The notes beneath the pieces were generated by a model. That model did no database searches. It was not told the DNA's origin and saw only the letters and a program-made list of their open reading frames with translations. Below are positions 19,946-51,470 of a stretch of 64,000 nt of DNA, in pieces. The stretch lies in assembly GCA_964344415.1 (NCBI GenBank), contig CAYFMS010000002.1, positions 142-64,141 of the forward strand. Direction: 5' to 3'. The stretch is from an uncultured Gammaproteobacteria bacterium (GTDB taxonomy: Bacteria > Patescibacteriota > Patescibacteriia > UBA9934). Made by a program: the position numbers and the translations under genes. Each line of letters starts with the position of its first letter. The first letter of the stretch is position 1.

Positions 19946-20497
19946 TTACTCGAAGACGGGTCGGAATGATGGTTTGCGTGGTGGTTTGGGGATCTCAATT
20001 CCGACACGGAGCATCCCGCTCGTCATCACTTCAGCGATCAGGCCACCGCGCCCCATCATGACCTTGCCGAAATCTGGCAAATCATGTTGGCCGGTGCGCC
20101 CAAGGTTCGAGGGGCGTGCGCAAGGGTCGCAATATGCAACGCCACGGAATTGAACGTCACCGATGACGAAGGGACGGCCAAGAAGCCACATCAGATCAAC
20201 TCCCTCCGTGACAAGATTTCGCCTGGAAAACTCAGCGGGGTAATTCACCGCCGCCAAATCCTCCGCACTGATCAGTGTCACCTGTCGTCGTCCGGGCTTT
20301 TCTTTGTTGACATAGCTCCCAGTGCCAATTGCGTATCGGTCATTTTGCAAACCAGCACCAGCAATTGCCAGCACTTCATGCTGACTAATCATGGGTTCTC
20401 CGGCCCCTGGACTCGTATAGATTTTTTTAAGTCTACCAATCATCGTTGTTACCTCCGCTGCCGTTATATTACATTTATTCCACATAGGCAAATCCAT
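19946..20497 (-). CDS. MOSC domain-containing protein (YiiM-like)
   Basis: 183 aa; MOSC hallmarks GLQNDRY, RQVTLISAEDL, NLVTEGVDL, conserved Cys in GVAYCDPCARP; lies in a GC-rich island; GGAGGT RBS; own terminator 19895-19920. Confidence 0.65.
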   Translation of the reverse strand: MDLPMWNKCNITAAEVTTMIGRLKKIYTSPGAGEPMISQHEVLAIAGAGLQNDRYAIGTGSYVNKEKPGRRQVTLISAEDLAAVNYPAEFSRRNLVTEGVDLMWLLGRPFVIGDVQFRGVAYCDPCARPSNLGRTGQHDLPDFGKVMMGRGGLIAEVMTSGMLRVGIEIPKPPRKPSFRPVFE

Positions 20498-24047: not shown

Positions 24048-24115
24048 TTATCCCCACCAAGGTTTAACCTTGATGTGGATAACTACCGTTCAAGGTTAAA
24101 CCTTGCTGTGGATAA
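24048..24115. repeat. composite repeat D: TTATCCCCA, TGTGGATAA, TGTGGATAA interleaved with two CAAGGTT(T)AAACCTTG palindromes
   Basis: Read directly between the dnaE stop and the start of gene 24120. Confidence 0.8.
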
Positions 24116-32429: not shown

Positions 32430-33152
32430 TTATTTGATTGATATTAATTTTTTAAATAATAATTCACTTTGATGCAGTGTTTCCTCGAGTGCCGTACCGG
32501 TGTCAATCGAATGAACAGATGTTCCAGTGGCTGTAAATATAGACTGAAATTCCTCGCTATGAAAAATGTTCTGATAAGCGATTAATTTCTCCATATCCTC
32601 ATAAATGCCTTTCGACATCTCTGCTCGCTCGCGCTGCCTGGCCTGTGCAGTATCTGGATCGATGTATGTCAACACCAGATGATCCGGCGCATGCTTGATG
32701 GCATAGGTATTGCCAGGGAGTTTCATGACCTCCTCTTGGTTTATTGTATCATCCATATGGCCTTGATACACGATAGAAGTGGATACACTGCGGTCTTGTA
32801 TGATAATTTTACCGGCCTTGATTGCGGGGACGATGAGGCGACGATACTGCATATGTCGGTCGAGTGAAAAAGCATGCGCTTGCTCGATAGCCTTATATTC
32901 ATCTCCATTGAATGCTATTTCGTTACGAATTGATGACCCGATCCATGCCTTTGTTGGTTCGATAGTGAAATAAACATCATAATTGTCTATTTCGGAAAAG
33001 AGTGGAATTGAATCGTGATTTTTGTACCATTCCTGAGAATCAAATGCGCGAAGATTGCTTTGCGTGACCATATCTTTGACATGATTCAATATGGTTGTTT
33101 TTCCACTTCCGGCAATACCGTCAATGACAATAAATAGTCCCGATTTGCTCAT
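32430..33152 (-). CDS. tmk: thymidylate kinase-like (dTMP kinase)
   Basis: P-loop FIVIDGIAGSGKTT; DRSVSTSIVYQG resembles the Tmk DRYxxSxxAYQG motif; sits in a dTTP-pathway context next to dut. Confidence 0.65.
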   Translation of the reverse strand: MSKSGLFIVIDGIAGSGKTTILNHVKDMVTQSNLRAFDSQEWYKNHDSIPLFSEIDNYDVYFTIEPTKAWIGSSIRNEIAFNGDEYKAIEQAHAFSLDRHMQYRRLIVPAIKAGKIIIQDRSVSTSIVYQGHMDDTINQEEVMKLPGNTYAIKHAPDHLVLTYIDPDTAQARQRERAEMSKGIYEDMEKLIAYQNIFHSEEFQSIFTATGTSVHSIDTGTALEETLHQSELLFKKLISIK

Positions 33153-33156
33153 AGAT

Positions 33157-33588
33157 TTATTTACCTGTTGATCCGTGCCCGCCTCGATTCTTATCTCCCA
33201 ATGCGTCTACTTGAGTGAATTCGGCGCGGATATGTGGAACGATAACACCCTGCGCAACGCGGTCACCAGGTGAGAATTTCTTTTCTTCATTCGTAACATT
33301 CTCGAGTATAAGAAATATTTCATCATCATTTCCTGAATAGTCGCTATCAATGACTCCAACGTCATTTCCCATTGTTACTCCGAGTTTGAGTGGCCCGGAA
33401 GATCTAGAGAATACAAGAAGAACATGATTCTGTGGCACTTCCATCGCAAGGCCGGTGCGCACAAGTTTCATCTGTCCAGGATTCAGCTGAACATCTTCTA
33501 CGAGGTGAAAATCAAACCCGGCCGCCCCTTCTGTTTTGTATTCGGGGATGATTGCATCCGGATGAATCTTTTTTATCCTCACATTCAT
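33157..33588 (-). CDS. dut: dUTP diphosphatase
   Basis: dUTPase motifs AAGFDF, GVIDSDYSGND, RVAQGVI. Start taken at internal ATG (MNVRIKK), because the 190-aa ORF has a non-conserved N-terminal extension. Confidence 0.8.
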   Translation of the reverse strand: MNVRIKKIHPDAIIPEYKTEGAAGFDFHLVEDVQLNPGQMKLVRTGLAMEVPQNHVLLVFSRSSGPLKLGVTMGNDVGVIDSDYSGNDDEIFLILENVTNEEKKFSPGDRVAQGVIVPHIRAEFTQVDALGDKNRGGHGSTGK

Positions 33589-33644
33589 ATGCAGATAGCT
33601 TAGCAGATAACTTAGCCATTTTTTGATCTTTTCCACATGTAAAA

Positions 33645-35537
33645 TTGCCCAGAGTGGATTCTTCGCATAAGGTGATCGCGTGGCAGGGAGGGATGCGAAC
33701 CATGCTTGCGCATATGAATAAACTCCCAACAGAATTTACACAAAGCCTTTGTCATGTTTTTCAGGACAAAGAATCAGGCGAATTATATGTCGCCATAGGT
33801 GACGGTCGGCAATTGCCGTATCGTCAATTTATACAGGATAGCGTTTTTCAAATGGCGCGGTCCTATTTTTTGTCTCCAACGAGCAATATTACAGCGGTCA
33901 ATCCTCGTAAGCTTGCTGGACTTATTGGAGCGATGCTTGCTCGCCAATCTCGTGCGCCAGGAACGGTGATCGAAGTTCTTGTAAATGAATTCTTAGTTAC
34001 AGATCCTGATGAGGCTGCGGAATTGGGTGTGAATGTAGGTGATCTAAGAGAAGGGAAGCTCGACGCGCTCATTGAACGTATTCTGATTCAATACGGCGAT
34101 GATTCGGTTCAGGAGCTTGAATTTTCAACGGTTCTGTTCAACTCGGTTTCAAATCTTGCTGCGAAAGCGATTGAGGATAGGCGTCTCGGTGCCTTTATTG
34201 AACAATCAAGTCGCTACGTCTATTACAATCAAAAAGATCCGATCACGGATAGCTGGTATTATTATCGGCCAGAAGAAATACTGAATTCACATTTGAAGGA
34301 TCGGTACATTGAAGTCATGGATGCATGCTTTGAATTGTATGCAAAGCTCGCGGATCAGCTTGAAACACATTATCGAAATATCAAGCCACTCGAGTCATGT
34401 GAATATGCGATTAAGCCAAATGACAAGAAAAAATACCGCTTCAATGAATTAGACAATCCAAAGCAGAAACGATTATTTAAACGCACATACGGTTTTGATA
34501 TTCGGACAAAGGCGGCTGACACATCAAGAATTATGCTTCCTGCGGGGACACTTACGAGTCTTGCAATGGTGGCAAATGGCCGAACCTTCGAGCATCTTTT
34601 AAAGCGGCTCTATTCATCTCCATACGGTGAATTCAAGGATATTGCTCGCAAAGGGCATGAAACGCTCAACAAAGTCATTCCAAAATATGTGAAGCGGGCG
34701 AATCCGGAGGGAGAGAAATTCTGGATGCAGGTTGATGATGATATTCGAAATGATTTGCGAGAAGCCATTCCTGCGGCTATGAGTTTTGATGGTGATGATA
34801 CGGAAGTGAAATTGCTCGATGTGCCTCGATTGATGTCGAGTGACCCAGATGCGCGCATTCACTATCTTGCGGCGGCGTATTTCCCATATGCTCGAACGGA
34901 TTATGGGCGTATTGTGAATGAATTGCGAGCATTGCCAGCAGAGCGAGTTGCGGAATTATTTAGACATGCTATTGGCGCCCGTGAAACGCGGCGTGATCGG
35001 TCTCCTCGAGGATTCGAGCATGGGTATGATATTACGGCGGAAATTGTAGGGGACTTTGGAATTTTCCGAGATTTGCATCGCCATCGCATGTGTACACTTC
35101 AGTGGCAGCGTCCAAATCCGCATCTAGGATTTATTATCCCTCAGGATATTGTCGATATCGGTCTTGCTGATGAATGTCGAGCAGTTGAGCAGCAGGTGAG
35201 GGCGCTTTATGATGATATTTCTTCAAGCCTTGATCCGTATTTGGCCGAATATGTGACATTATTTGGTCACAAAATTCGTTTTACAATTGGTATGAATTTA
35301 CGTGAATCGCAGCATTTGCTCGAGCTTCGAACCGTGAAGCAGGGACATCCGAATTATCGGCGTGTTTGTCAGAAGATTCACAACGAAATGAGGCGTCGCG
35401 CTCCGTGGATTGATGAATGTGATGTGCTGAAATTCGTGGATCATAACAGTTACAGTTGGGCCCGCGCTGATGCGGAAGCTCGGCAAAGTCAAAAAATGAT
35501 TGAGCGCAAGATCGATGATGAAATGATTAATGAATAA
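33645..35537 (+). CDS. ThyX-like protein, long form with two ThyX-like halves (putative flavin-dependent thymidylate synthase)
   Basis: 630 aa. First half carries DRRLGAFIEQSSRYV, resembling the ThyX RHRxxSxxxxSQRY signature. Second half carries LHRHRMCTLQWQ (RHR motif). Embedded between dut/tmk and dcd. Confidence 0.45.
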   Translation: MPRVDSSHKVIAWQGGMRTMLAHMNKLPTEFTQSLCHVFQDKESGELYVAIGDGRQLPYRQFIQDSVFQMARSYFLSPTSNITAVNPRKLAGLIGAMLARQSRAPGTVIEVLVNEFLVTDPDEAAELGVNVGDLREGKLDALIERILIQYGDDSVQELEFSTVLFNSVSNLAAKAIEDRRLGAFIEQSSRYVYYNQKDPITDSWYYYRPEEILNSHLKDRYIEVMDACFELYAKLADQLETHYRNIKPLESCEYAIKPNDKKKYRFNELDNPKQKRLFKRTYGFDIRTKAADTSRIMLPAGTLTSLAMVANGRTFEHLLKRLYSSPYGEFKDIARKGHETLNKVIPKYVKRANPEGEKFWMQVDDDIRNDLREAIPAAMSFDGDDTEVKLLDVPRLMSSDPDARIHYLAAAYFPYARTDYGRIVNELRALPAERVAELFRHAIGARETRRDRSPRGFEHGYDITAEIVGDFGIFRDLHRHRMCTLQWQRPNPHLGFIIPQDIVDIGLADECRAVEQQVRALYDDISSSLDPYLAEYVTLFGHKIRFTIGMNLRESQHLLELRTVKQGHPNYRRVCQKIHNEMRRRAPWIDECDVLKFVDHNSYSWARADAEARQSQKMIERKIDDEMINE

Positions 35538-35735
35538 AAAAAAGGGCCTTGATGGCTCTTTTTACTACCAAAATTCGCCAAAATAATCATATAAGTGTAG
35601 ATCGGCACTTATATGGAAAAAGGGCTAATTTTAGCTATTTACCATTGACGAAGCCGTCATCTTTTGCTATTCTTACTCTTCCTTTACCAATCAGGGTGAG
35701 GATTCACGCGCTAGAAAAAGCGCAAGGAGTTTGTC

Positions 35736-36224
35736 ATGACGACCAACATTGTCACCGACGAGCAGCTGGGCGTTCTCGCCCGGCGTCAACATGATCTTTC
35801 AGGTCGATTCATCGACTGCGACGCGCAGCCTTTCGTCCCGGACGGTTGGAGTGTGGAAGAGCATCGCAAGGGCGGGCTGCTAGAGTTCGATCCTGCAAAG
35901 ATCGAACTCTACCTCGACCGCCGGCAGAAGAGTGGTAAGATCGTCGGCCATTATTTCCGGCAGAAGCTGGTAGATAAGCCTGTGCTCAACGCATGCGTGC
36001 TCGACCACCTGCTCGCCAACACGGCTCTCATCCCAGGGGATTGGAAGCGTGATGAACAGGGCAGGACACGCTATATTTACTTCTGGGGAACGGTTTACCG
36101 CGACTCGATTGCCTATCAGCGCGTGCGTTACCTCTGCTGGAGCGGCGGGCGGTGGCAATGGCGCTCCGGCGAGCTCGACCGCGGCTGGCACGATCGGGGT
36201 CCGGCTGCGATTCTAGCGAGTTAA
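35736..36224 (+). CDS. hypothetical protein encoded by a GC-rich island
   Basis: 162 aa; AAGGAG RBS 8 nt upstream; strong 14-bp hairpin plus T6 terminator at 36294-36335; markedly higher GC than its neighbours. Confidence 0.45.
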   Translation: MTTNIVTDEQLGVLARRQHDLSGRFIDCDAQPFVPDGWSVEEHRKGGLLEFDPAKIELYLDRRQKSGKIVGHYFRQKLVDKPVLNACVLDHLLANTALIPGDWKRDEQGRTRYIYFWGTVYRDSIAYQRVRYLCWSGGRWQWRSGELDRGWHDRGPAAILAS

Positions 36225-36293
36225 GAACTGAGGGCTTTGGGACTTTGAACTTCTGTTCTTTGTCCCTTGACTCTTTGTCCTTTGCTTCGCTAG

Positions 36294-36335
36294 GGGTTAT
36301 GAATGACAGGAATATCATTCATAACCCCTTTTTTA
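36294..36335 (+). terminator. strong hairpin terminator after the GC-rich ORF (abuts the dcd stop)
   Basis: ggggttatgaatga-caggaata-tcattcataacccc (14-bp perfect stem) followed by tttttt. Confidence 0.7.
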
Positions 36336-37454
36336 ATCTTGCTTGAAATGCTTTGAAAGTCTTGGTCCGATTTGTCGATAGTAATTATTGCTCAGCTCGG
36401 GCGCTCCATAAGAAACGGTTGTTGGTTCTATGAGTCTGCTGTACACCATTTGGCAAATAGGCTGGCCATCGCGGAGTATGAAATCATTATCATGCGTAAA
36501 TACTTCGAGTACGGCAGGTGATCCGAGTGTTTCTCCTGAAGTTCCATAGCCAAATCCAGGGTCAAAAAATCCGGCATAATGAGATCGAAATTCACCTTTA
36601 CTGACATCATAAGGCACCATTTCAACGGCATATTCATTCGGTACGCGTATTCCTTCCTTCGTTACGAATATATAGAATTCATCTCTTTTCATGATGAGCT
36701 GGCCATCTCGTGGTCTTTCGATGGGTTCGAAGAAATCGAGCGGGTTATAGTCTCGGCGGCTATAATCGAGCACTTTACTTGTTGTTGGGTAACATTTATA
36801 TCCAATAATTTCTTCACTTGTAAGGTCAATGGTCATGGTGATTCCTTGCGCGCCAACGAATTGAGGGGCGGGCAGAACGGCATGATTGAGCCCGCGCAGC
36901 AGGCCATAGCGATTGTACTCGCTCTGATATTCCTGTGCATTCAAAAGGGCATCGTCCGTAAAGAACATCATTTGATTTAGTCTTTCACCCTCACTGAGTT
37001 TAACGGGGAATGATTTCGGAATAACCTCAAGCCATAATTCACCGCTATATCCACGTGGAGCGAAATCGAAAGATGAAACGCCGTCAACAATAAGGCGAGT
37101 TTGCAAATTCACGCGCCCCGTACTTGATTTATTATTTGTCCGCGCAAAAAGAGCGTCCGGTAAATCAAGCCGTTCATTTAACCTAATCAGATAAACACAA
37201 TTGAGCTCGAGCGGTTGGTCAATCGATGTCTGGAAAAGTGATCCATGCTTTACAATGTCGCGTATGGATTCATGACGCTTTGGCAAAAAGCTACCCTTCA
37301 TTCGGTACGCCTCTGCTGAAATCGAAAGGTCAATTGATGACGGCTGTAAATGCTCTCTCTGTGATCCGGTTACATGACCGGCACTGAGCAGTGTTTCTAA
37401 ATGCTGATACGCAAGCGTCCCCCTCGATTGCGCGATATCTTCTAGACGCTTCAT
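36333..37454 (-). CDS. dcd: dCTP deaminase, long (about 370 aa) form
   Basis: PSSIDLSI and GFFDPGFGYG match dCTP deaminase/dUTPase-superfamily motifs; length fits the long 2'-deoxycytidine 5'-triphosphate deaminase family; pathway context. Confidence 0.6.
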   Translation of the reverse strand: MKRLEDIAQSRGTLAYQHLETLLSAGHVTGSQREHLQPSSIDLSISAEAYRMKGSFLPKRHESIRDIVKHGSLFQTSIDQPLELNCVYLIRLNERLDLPDALFARTNNKSSTGRVNLQTRLIVDGVSSFDFAPRGYSGELWLEVIPKSFPVKLSEGERLNQMMFFTDDALLNAQEYQSEYNRYGLLRGLNHAVLPAPQFVGAQGITMTIDLTSEEIIGYKCYPTTSKVLDYSRRDYNPLDFFEPIERPRDGQLIMKRDEFYIFVTKEGIRVPNEYAVEMVPYDVSKGEFRSHYAGFFDPGFGYGTSGETLGSPAVLEVFTHDNDFILRDGQPICQMVYSRLIEPTTVSYGAPELSNNYYRQIGPRLSKHFKQD

Positions 37455-37486: not shown

Positions 37487-37537
37487 GAGATCCGATCTAC
37501 TTATCCACAGCCAAAGTCGGACATTGAATGTGGATAA
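37487..37537. repeat. composite repeat B: GAGATCCGATCT + TTATCCACA-N19-TGTGGATAA (reverse-complement arrangement of repeat A)
   Basis: 37487 gagatccgatctacttatccacagccaaagtcggacattgaatgtggataa 37537, between dcd start and rplA terminator. Confidence 0.8.
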
Positions 37538-49862: not shown

Positions 49863-49940
49863 TTCGCAAAATTGTCCACAGCAAGGTTAAACCTTGAGCG
49901 TCACTTATCCACATCAAGGTTTAACCTTGAAATCGGCTAC
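49863..49940. repeat. composite repeat E: TTGTCCACA, TTATCCACA, TGTGGATAA with two CAAGGTT(T)AAACCTTG palindromes
   Basis: Read directly in the rpmE / 50055-gene divergent intergenic region; same architecture as repeat D in the opposite orientation. Confidence 0.8.
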
Positions 49941-50006
49941 CTGTGGATAACTTTGATTTTTGGCTAGGGTAGGGGGAGAATTGTACATAATTTTGCCAGA
50001 TTAGGC

Positions 50007-51416: not shown

Positions 51417-51470
51417 TTATCCACATTCTAAGTCGGACATTGAATGTGGATAAGTTATATATTTGTCCAC
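51417..51470. repeat. composite repeat C: TTATCCACA-N19-TGTGGATAA plus TTGTCCAC half-site and adjacent TTTGTCCAC-TCTAG-TGTAGACAAA palindrome
   Basis: 51417 ttatccacattctaagtcggacattgaatgtggataa 51453; overlaps the 5' end of the excisionase-family HTH gene. Confidence 0.8.

Follow-up and report, generated by a model that had tools for sequence, protein, structure and literature searches.

Fused ThyX with active-site residues divided between its halves, in a probable thymidine-nucleotide gene neighbourhood of Candidatus Uhrbacteria

Can a protein built of two ThyX-like halves, neither of which holds the complete ThyX signature, act as a thymidylate synthase, and how did a gene of unusual composition come to lie beside it? 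These questions are raised by a 64-kb stretch of DNA (contig CAYFMS010000002.1, assembly GCA_964344415.1), called the window throughout, by which we mean the whole stretch that was analysed. An initial annotation described in it a cluster of genes for dTTP synthesis (tmk, dut, a long thyX-like gene and dcd), a GC-rich open reading frame (ORF) of 162 amino acids (aa), here termed ORF162, within that cluster, and a DnaA-box-like repeat at the dcd promoter. The analysis reported here makes it likely that the locus groups the thymidine-nucleotide genes of a genome from Candidatus Uhrbacteria (Patescibacteria), with the fused ThyX as its thymidylate synthase and ORF162 as an acquired gene.

Domains, fold and active-site residues of the fused ThyX

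The long thyX gene consists of two parts:

33702-34766, plus strand: N-terminal half of thyX, residues 1-355 of 611; PF02511 E = 4.7e-18 when searched alone; keeps the dUMP-holding residues
34767-35537, plus strand: C-terminal half of thyX, residues 356-611 and the stop codon; PF02511 E = 1.9e-12 when searched alone; keeps the RHR residues, which contact flavin adenine dinucleotide (FAD), and R174

The proposal that this gene encodes a tandem ThyX was borne out when the Thy1 profile (PF02511) was tested on each half alone, as the N-terminal half scored 66.1 bits, the C-terminal half 47.8 bits and the whole protein 110.2 bits, all above the gathering score of 24.8. Structure prediction likewise found the ThyX fold in both halves. 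The order of strands and helices was identical in the two halves of an AlphaFold2 model based on a 45-sequence alignment (predicted local distance difference test, pLDDT, 90.1; predicted template-modelling score, pTM, 0.84), and each of the 28 matches returned by Foldseek from the PDB at E <= 1e-3 was a ThyX, with a TM-score to the target of ~0.6. These matches were the single-domain enzymes of M. tuberculosis, PBCV-1, T. maritima and C. glutamicum, and no fused form was among the solved ThyX structures that the search returned. A profile-profile comparison of the N-terminal half with the C-terminal half (hhalign) gave E = 0.09 over 40 columns. Support for the duplication comes via Pfam and the fold, not via direct similarity of one half to the other, and since the halves have diverged so far, the duplication must be ancient.

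The ORF of 630 aa in the initial annotation is present, but its start had to be revised. The ATG at 33702, which gives a protein of 611 aa and is backed by the database form and by the family alignment, is most likely the real start codon, and the TTG at 33645 with which the 630-aa reading begins falls inside the -35-like hexamer of a putative promoter described below. An identical 611-aa ThyX, encoded on a 768-kb contig, is already in the database, where the nearest proteins are from Candidatus Uhrbacteria.

Residues were mapped onto C. glutamicum ThyX and T. maritima (Tm) ThyX; for the Tm sequence used, the C-terminal 92 residues match a printed alignment and 17 published residue numbers agree. 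Neither half carries the complete RHRxxSxxxxSxR motif, which is complete only when the halves are pooled: the motif of the N-terminal half, DRRLGAFIEQSSRY, has lost the first Arg and the His, and that of the C-terminal half, RHRMCTLQWQRPN, has lost the Ser and the Arg. The N-terminal half keeps, in family-conserved form, K155 (Tm R74), R161 (R80), E167 (E86), S169 (S88), R171 (R90), Y172 (Y91), R276 (R147), N292 (N163) and R294 (R165); it has D159 in place of Tm R78 and R160 in place of Tm H79, and no conserved Arg at the position of Tm R174. The C-terminal half keeps, invariantly, R456 (Tm R74), R460-H461-R462 (R78-H79-R80), R534 (R165) and R543 (R174), together with N532, the equivalent of Tm N163, and has lost the residues at the positions of Tm S88, R90, Y91 and R147. 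With the halves combined, all of the contacts to dUMP and the FAD phosphates (Tm R78, H79, R80, E86, S88, R90, Y91, R147, R165, and R174) are present and family-invariant. The alignment showed this complementary pattern to be invariant in Uhrbacteria, other Patescibacteria, Micrarchaeota-type archaea, unassigned lineages and a jumbo-phage protein. The split signature that the initial annotation had reported is thus real at the level of single residues, and both of the motifs it quoted fall in invariant columns of the family alignment.

A review of the M. tuberculosis and H. pylori structures has the canonical site assembled from subunit A (the RHR residues and R199, i.e., Tm R174), subunit B (S71 and R190, i.e., Tm R165), and subunit C (R87, S105, R107 and Y108, covering Tm S88, R90 and Y91), the last of which holds dUMP (PMC6514825). 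In Tm terms, each site of the canonical homotetramer draws RHR and R174 from one subunit and the dUMP loop E86/S88/R90/Y91 from a second, while a third contributes the NxR arginine. Of these sets, the C-terminal half of the fused ThyX has only the first to supply and the N-terminal half only the second (along with, presumably, the R147 equivalent), and both halves keep NxR. Considering the residues kept by each half against these subunit assignments, the C-terminal half has retained the "A" role and the N-terminal half the "C" role. Within one chain of 611 aa, two anciently duplicated ThyX domains have degenerated in a complementary manner. From the split residues and the 222 symmetry of ThyX we infer the quaternary structure and number of sites: the working form is most likely a dimer of fused chains (a pseudo-tetramer), in which two FAD/dUMP sites would be complete and the other two dead.

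A different arrangement was also weighed, in which a single fused chain acts as a pseudo-dimer or the chains build an assembly with four sites, and residues such as R160/R161 or R302 of the N-terminal half or R470 of the C-terminal half might rescue the apparently dead sites. One of the RHR arginines is indeed kept in the N-terminal half (R161), and the Uhrbacteria N-terminal half has R302 near the R174 position. However, R302 is not conserved beyond the Uhrbacteria clade, the C-terminal half is without the Ser, Arg and Tyr of S88/R90/Y91 in every member, and canonical sites require three subunits (PMC6514825; Leduc 2004, by its title), which is more than a lone pseudo-dimer could offer. We regard such an arrangement as unlikely and retain the dimer of fused chains as the probable form.

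To place the fused ThyX among its relatives, its profile was searched against 1.84 billion cluster representatives (50% identity), which returned 969 clusters with E values of 1e-30 or lower; of the 150 with the highest scores, most are 500-620 aa in length. Two peptide patterns alone retrieved relatives in 294 species-level genomes. Going by their titles, most of the best 80 belong to Patescibacteria (Uhr-, Azam-, Peri-, Gracili-, Sacchari- and Doudnabacteria, Kazan, and Parcubacteria), and counts over 80 loci in this report refer to the best 80 of the 294 species-level genomes with a long ThyX. The neighbours of a distant member are DPANN archaea with proteins of 520-550 aa, many of them named FAD-dependent thymidylate synthase, and gp50 of the Tunturiibacter phage Tunturi_5 is a double-Thy1 protein of 518 aa that is annotated as thymidylate synthase and lies beside a dCMP deaminase. 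A look-up of the clusters of 10 distant members gave no organism names. The Chlamydia trachomatis ThyX is a fused form of ~529 aa that has been used in enzymology. Our literature search for an explicit description of the fused form, which left the key 2004 papers outside, gave one relevant statement, namely that a duplicated ThyX domain occurs in Chloroflexi and "a few other species" (Valas and Bourne, 2009; PMC3224940). The view of this protein as an unusual enzyme form therefore has to be given up, since the fused ThyX is the standard form in Patescibacteria and DPANN archaea, is routinely annotated, and had its duplication in print in 2009. The architecture is real but already known, and the Uhrbacteria copy adds a member.

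Many loci (L017, L019, L020, L022, L043, L058, and others) carry a Patescibacteria-type long ThyX and ribosomal-protein synteny under the public titles "uncultured Gammaproteobacteria", "Woesearchaeota" or "Methanosarcinales"; these titles look like unreliable taxonomic labels of metagenome-assembled genomes.

Compared with canonical ThyX (also called FDTS; T. maritima TM0449, M. tuberculosis ThyX and PBCV-1 A674R; PF02511, TIGR02170), the fused protein has the same fold in both halves, matches the catalytic, dUMP-binding and FAD-binding residues when the halves are pooled, and likewise occupies a pathway position beside dut and tmk. Whereas the canonical enzyme is a homotetramer with four sites, the fused one is a 611-aa chain with two diverged domains and two predicted sites. 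The domain-duplicated ThyX of the Chloroflexi type also has two ThyX domains per chain (PMC3224940), and it and the Chlamydia form may belong to the same clade. The proteins of DPANN archaea and of the jumbo phage share both the architecture and the complementary residue pattern with the Uhrbacteria ThyX but are without its additional N-terminal, beta-rich extension of ~55 residues and its insertion at ~228-252.

Gene neighbourhood of thyX and ORF162

The following features surround thyX:

32430-33152, minus strand: tmk, dTMP kinase, 240 aa; TIGR00041 102.1 bits (cut-off 83.25), PF02223 E = 2.5e-21
33157-33588, minus strand: dut, dUTP diphosphatase, 143 aa; TIGR00576 119.8 bits (cut-off 102.55), NF001862 119.4 bits (cut-off 103), full-length
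35539-35563, plus strand: terminator-like hairpin directly 3' of the thyX stop codon; RNA fold of -12.9 kcal/mol, z = -3.15, stem flanked by an A-run and a U-run
36333-37454, minus strand: dcd, long-form dCTP deaminase, 373 aa; NF005734 329.1 bits (cut-off 283), PF06559, PF22569, and two PF22769 stretches

In the profile search, tmk, dut and the long-form dcd each exceeded a curated family cut-off, and all five ORFs lie where the initial annotation had placed them, so that the clustering it described holds. Together, the enzymes would form a route from dCTP to dUTP (Dcd), on to dUMP (Dut) and dTMP (ThyX), and finally to dTDP (Tmk). Since tmk begins 4 nucleotides (nt) past the end of dut, these two genes are probably co-transcribed. 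A single operon is ruled out by the layout: dut and tmk, followed by a membrane protein, are on the minus strand, thyX (divergent from dut) and ORF162 (3' of thyX) are separate units on the plus strand, and dcd is convergent on the minus strand.

Relatives share the gene order gatB - membrane protein - tmk - dut <-> thyX - [slot] - dcd - L1 - L11 - nusG - secE. In 39 of the 80 loci, and in 17 of the 22 loci of Uhrbacteria type, a dut homologue lies no more than 4 kb from the long thyX. The slot between thyX and dcd varies between relatives. In one Uhrbacteria relative (L001 7884-9576; GCA_018664485.1) it contains dihydrofolate reductase (DHFR), dCMP deaminase and a short-form dcd, with no ORF162, and in another relative (L003) it contains two genes without known function; a 151-aa gene in the latter slot was considered as an ORF162 homologue and rejected.

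Several points speak against taking the long ThyX for the thymidylate synthase of this genome. Its score against TIGR02170, the NCBIfam ThyX equivalog model (211 profile positions, about one ThyX domain long), is 46.7 bits and does not reach the cut-off of 87.9. Its similarity to solved ThyX proteins is weak at the sequence level (E about 0.004-0.3), and Tm H53 and N169 are replaced by Asp and His, respectively, in the relevant halves. The initial annotation had named a canonical thyA or thyX elsewhere as contrary evidence; neither thyA nor a second thyX was found within the 64-kb window, the part of the genome that was searched. The low equivalog score, the great distance from solved ThyX, the lack of a complete ThyX motif in either half, and the restriction of the examined genome to 64 kb would all suit a ThyX-fold paralogue with another job (e.g., a different nucleotide C5-methylase or an inactive scaffold), with dTMP supplied by thyA or by thymidine salvage elsewhere. 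Set against such a paralogue, each of the canonical contacts to dUMP and the FAD phosphates survives as an invariant residue in at least one of the two halves, and thyX lies between dut, whose product makes dUMP, and tmk, whose product uses dTMP, in an arrangement that is conserved. Moreover, DHFR adjoins thyX in one relative, the phage copy adjoins a dCMP deaminase, and databases name the family FAD-dependent thymidylate synthase. We consider the paralogue very unlikely. The conserved linkage to enzymes that make dUMP and use dTMP is the strongest contextual support for a thymidylate synthase function, an activity that we likewise infer.

The long-form Dcd itself (36333-37454) fuses two DCD/dUTPase-like domains (two PF22769 stretches with DCD_N and DCD_C), so that two enzymes of the cluster, ThyX and Dcd, are fused duplicates, and the two-domain fusion of Dcd parallels that of ThyX. 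The single-domain counterparts of both normally build their active sites between identical subunits. Compared with known long-form dCTP deaminases (PRK07559 / NF005734), the Dcd of the cluster matches over its full length and above the equivalog cut-off, with nothing notable that differs. In a Parcubacteria relative (L004 1-1595; GCA_016196625.1), a GyrB of 2226 aa, into which several intein-splicing domains and a LAGLIDADG domain are interposed, is encoded close to thyX.

The slot of the window is occupied by ORF162 and its apparent expression signals:

35645-35673, plus strand: promoter-like TTGACG-17-TATTCT; consensus match
35724-35729, plus strand: Shine-Dalgarno sequence AAGGAG; read directly from the sequence, consensus match
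35736-36224, plus strand: ORF162, 162 aa; GC 0.595, GC at third codon positions (GC3) 0.693; no family hit
36292-36335, plus strand: strong intrinsic terminator between ORF162 and the dcd 3' end; 15-base-pair stem (36292-36329) followed by UUUUUU, -23.1 kcal/mol, z = -6.5

Both the foreign character of ORF162 and its own strong terminator, as initially described, were upheld. Among the 48 ORFs of the window (GC 0.441 +/- 0.03; GC3 0.40 +/- 0.07) ORF162 is the top outlier in composition, and none of 200 shuffles folded as well as the terminator. No hits to ORF162 were obtained in Pfam, NCBIfam, PHROGs, PADLOC, the INPHARED phages or the PLSDB plasmids, no recognisable nuclease, integrase or defence domain was found in it, and its structural model (pLDDT 89) gave no fold match in the PDB or BFVD (Foldseek). 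Its homologues number 379, of which every taxon-named one is from Patescibacteria and none has a family annotation. Members of the family (L005 5001-5594, L009 5001-5609, L012 5001-5597, and L094 3974-4495) lie in unrelated neighbourhoods, and one relative is located inside the replication/recombination module of a 40-kb viral contig. The homologues have a GC content of ~0.60 and GC3 of 0.74-0.84 in hosts of 0.41, 0.46 and 0.55 GC, which brings the range of GC3 in the family, window copy included, to 0.69-0.84. None of the 80 loci of relatives has ORF162 beside thyX.

A native ORF162, with a high GC content that merely reflects a protein rich in Arg, Gly and Trp, would be in keeping with the raised GC at first and second codon positions (0.656 and 0.436, respectively) and with a family confined to Patescibacteria, which leaves no distant donor. 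This explanation is extremely improbable in view of a GC3 of 0.693 against 0.40 +/- 0.07 for the genes of the window, the still higher GC3 of homologues in hosts of 0.41-0.55 GC, the unrelated contexts, the copy on a phage contig, and the absence of ORF162 from the slot in 80 of 80 relatives. The best reading of ORF162 is that of a recently acquired mobile gene that landed as a self-contained unit in a permissive, convergent gap, and it is unrelated to dTTP synthesis. The initial annotation had ORF162 interrupting the cluster, which it does not, as the gap is convergent and naturally variable and no operon is broken.

The window copy keeps the conserved core but, compared with the homologues nearest to it, is ~33 codons short in its N-terminal region owing to an internal deletion. 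Boundaries of the element were not identified, as no flanking repeats were found and DNA similarity to the homologue loci ends ~35 nt past the stop codon. The 3' flank (36225-36290) is rich in CTTTG/CCTTG pentamers; since similarity to the flank of the L012 homologue persists over the first ~35 nt of it, the transferred unit may reach slightly past the stop codon. Tandem Repeats Finder detected no tandem repeats in 35500-36400. Like phage morons and other free-standing mobile ORFs, ORF162 is a single self-contained gene of foreign composition with shifting contexts and phage-borne relatives, but it differs from them in being without a recognisable nuclease, integrase or defence domain and without flanking repeats.

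Two further observations concern the window as a whole. It contains no tRNA gene and no Rfam family at the gathering threshold, and so offers no tRNA gene as an integration site. A MOSC-domain ORF (19946-20497, minus strand), located just upstream of dnaE, is the second most GC-rich in the window (GC 0.525; GC3 0.527) and may be another acquired gene.

DnaA-box palindromes and the thyX promoter

The remaining features of the locus are regulatory candidates:

37501-37537, no strand assigned: palindrome TTATCCACA-N19-TGTGGATAA, 47-83 nt upstream of the dcd start codon
14263-14299, 24048-24115, 49872-49950 and 51417-51453: further palindromes, similar intergenic elements of ~37 nt with DnaA-box arms
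33629-33673, plus strand: putative thyX promoter; DnaA-box-like TTTTCCACA at 33629-33637, -35-like TTGCCC at 33645-33650, -10-like TAAGGT at 33668-33673; consensus match

The DnaA-box-like repeat reported at the dcd promoter is partly as described. Two perfect DnaA-box consensus 9-mers, TTATCCACA (37501-37509, plus strand) and TGTGGATAA (37529-37537, minus strand), do lie in inverted orientation upstream of dcd, but the palindrome they form is dispersed, with at least five copies, and is not specific to dcd. Exact DnaA boxes number nine in the 64-kb window, where about 0.5-0.7 would be expected, and most of the nine are parts of such palindromes; exact boxes are also 4.6-fold enriched across 95 loci. 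The boxes were also considered as a mark of oriC; this was rejected, as the window has no dnaA and unrelated genes adjoin the dispersed sites.

At thyX, a recurrent layout was found in Uhrbacteria, consisting of a DnaA-box 9-mer, 7-9 nt, a TTGACC-like -35 element, 16-17 nt, and a TAAGAT-like -10 element. A search of all loci and the window segment for box-N7-9-TTGNCN-N16-17-TANNNT gave eight occurrences, of which seven, the window copy at 33629-33673 included, are directly upstream of thyX, although these counts are not independent because several of the genomes are closely related. The positions in relatives are L022 3901, L024 3829, L026 3830, L027 3958, L028 3830, and L034 3839, and in five relatives the box of this layout is a perfect TTATCCACA. 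More broadly, 22 of the 80 loci have a box with at most one mismatch in the 300 nt upstream of thyX, compared with a background of 9%. In this clade, the putative thyX promoter has a conserved box just upstream of its -35 element, and DnaA-box-like sequences are promoter-proximal elements at many places in the genome. Such a box may link dTTP synthesis with DnaA, or with a different factor reading the same 9-mer, and control by DnaA is plausible by analogy with E. coli nrdAB.

Control of nrdAB by DnaA is established in E. coli. The present locus resembles that system in having consensus boxes in the promoter regions of genes for nucleotide synthesis, dcd and thyX. By contrast, the boxes of the window form 37-nt palindromes at five or more loci beside unrelated genes.

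This last property raises the question of whether the TTATCCACA palindromes have to do with DnaA at all. They could be dispersed hairpins resembling repetitive extragenic palindromes, or operator sites for a different dimeric regulator, with the 9-mer in common by chance. The copies adjoin the genes for PGM/M50 protease, dnaE, RF/glycosyltransferase, an ECF sigma factor, and dcd, some of which have no link to DNA synthesis, and the palindromic form is absent from the loci of relatives; both findings tell against a coupling of these elements to dTTP supply. In addition, the sequence folds as a hairpin, and the copies have two spacer types (one containing AAGTCGGACATTGAA, the other CAAGGTTTAACCTTG) and a common 3' extension, TGTGGATAAGT; conserved spacers with a common extension (TGTGGATAAGTA..GATCGGATCTCGGG) suggest a repeated element. 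On the other side, the arms equal the exact DnaA-box consensus, single boxes are enriched 4.6-fold across Patescibacteria loci, a box lies at a fixed distance from the thyX -35 element in six relatives and in the window, and there is the precedent of nrdAB. We consider an origin of the palindromes unrelated to DnaA quite possible, if a little short of probable.

In its most far-reaching form, the DnaA reading would be combined with that of the enzyme: the fused ThyX would be obligately asymmetric, with two live and two dead sites and ~1 FAD per chain, would serve as the main thymidylate synthase of ultra-small symbionts (bacteria of the candidate phyla radiation, CPR, and DPANN archaea) and of some jumbo phages, and, in Uhrbacteria, would have its supply of dTTP coupled to replication initiation by DnaA-box elements at the thyX and dcd promoters. 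Taken jointly, these proposals are tentative, and we hold it doubtful that all of them are correct.

Significance of the locus

These results are of modest practical value and do not overturn current understanding, as the enzyme family is already recognised and annotated. ThyX is an antibacterial target because humans do not have it. Within this family, the complementary degeneration of two fused domains amounts to a natural experiment that backs the composite, three-subunit active site. The fused form predicts half as many sites per unit mass, and the two-site, asymmetric assembly predicted here is a testable point about it. The ORF162 family, with a GC content of ~60% in every host examined, is a lead into exchange between phages and hosts in the CPR, and the DnaA-box palindromes that recur at promoters are a lead into CPR gene regulation. 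As for CPR and DPANN organisms, whose metabolism is minimal, the locus shows that a complete route from dCTP to dTDP is encoded.

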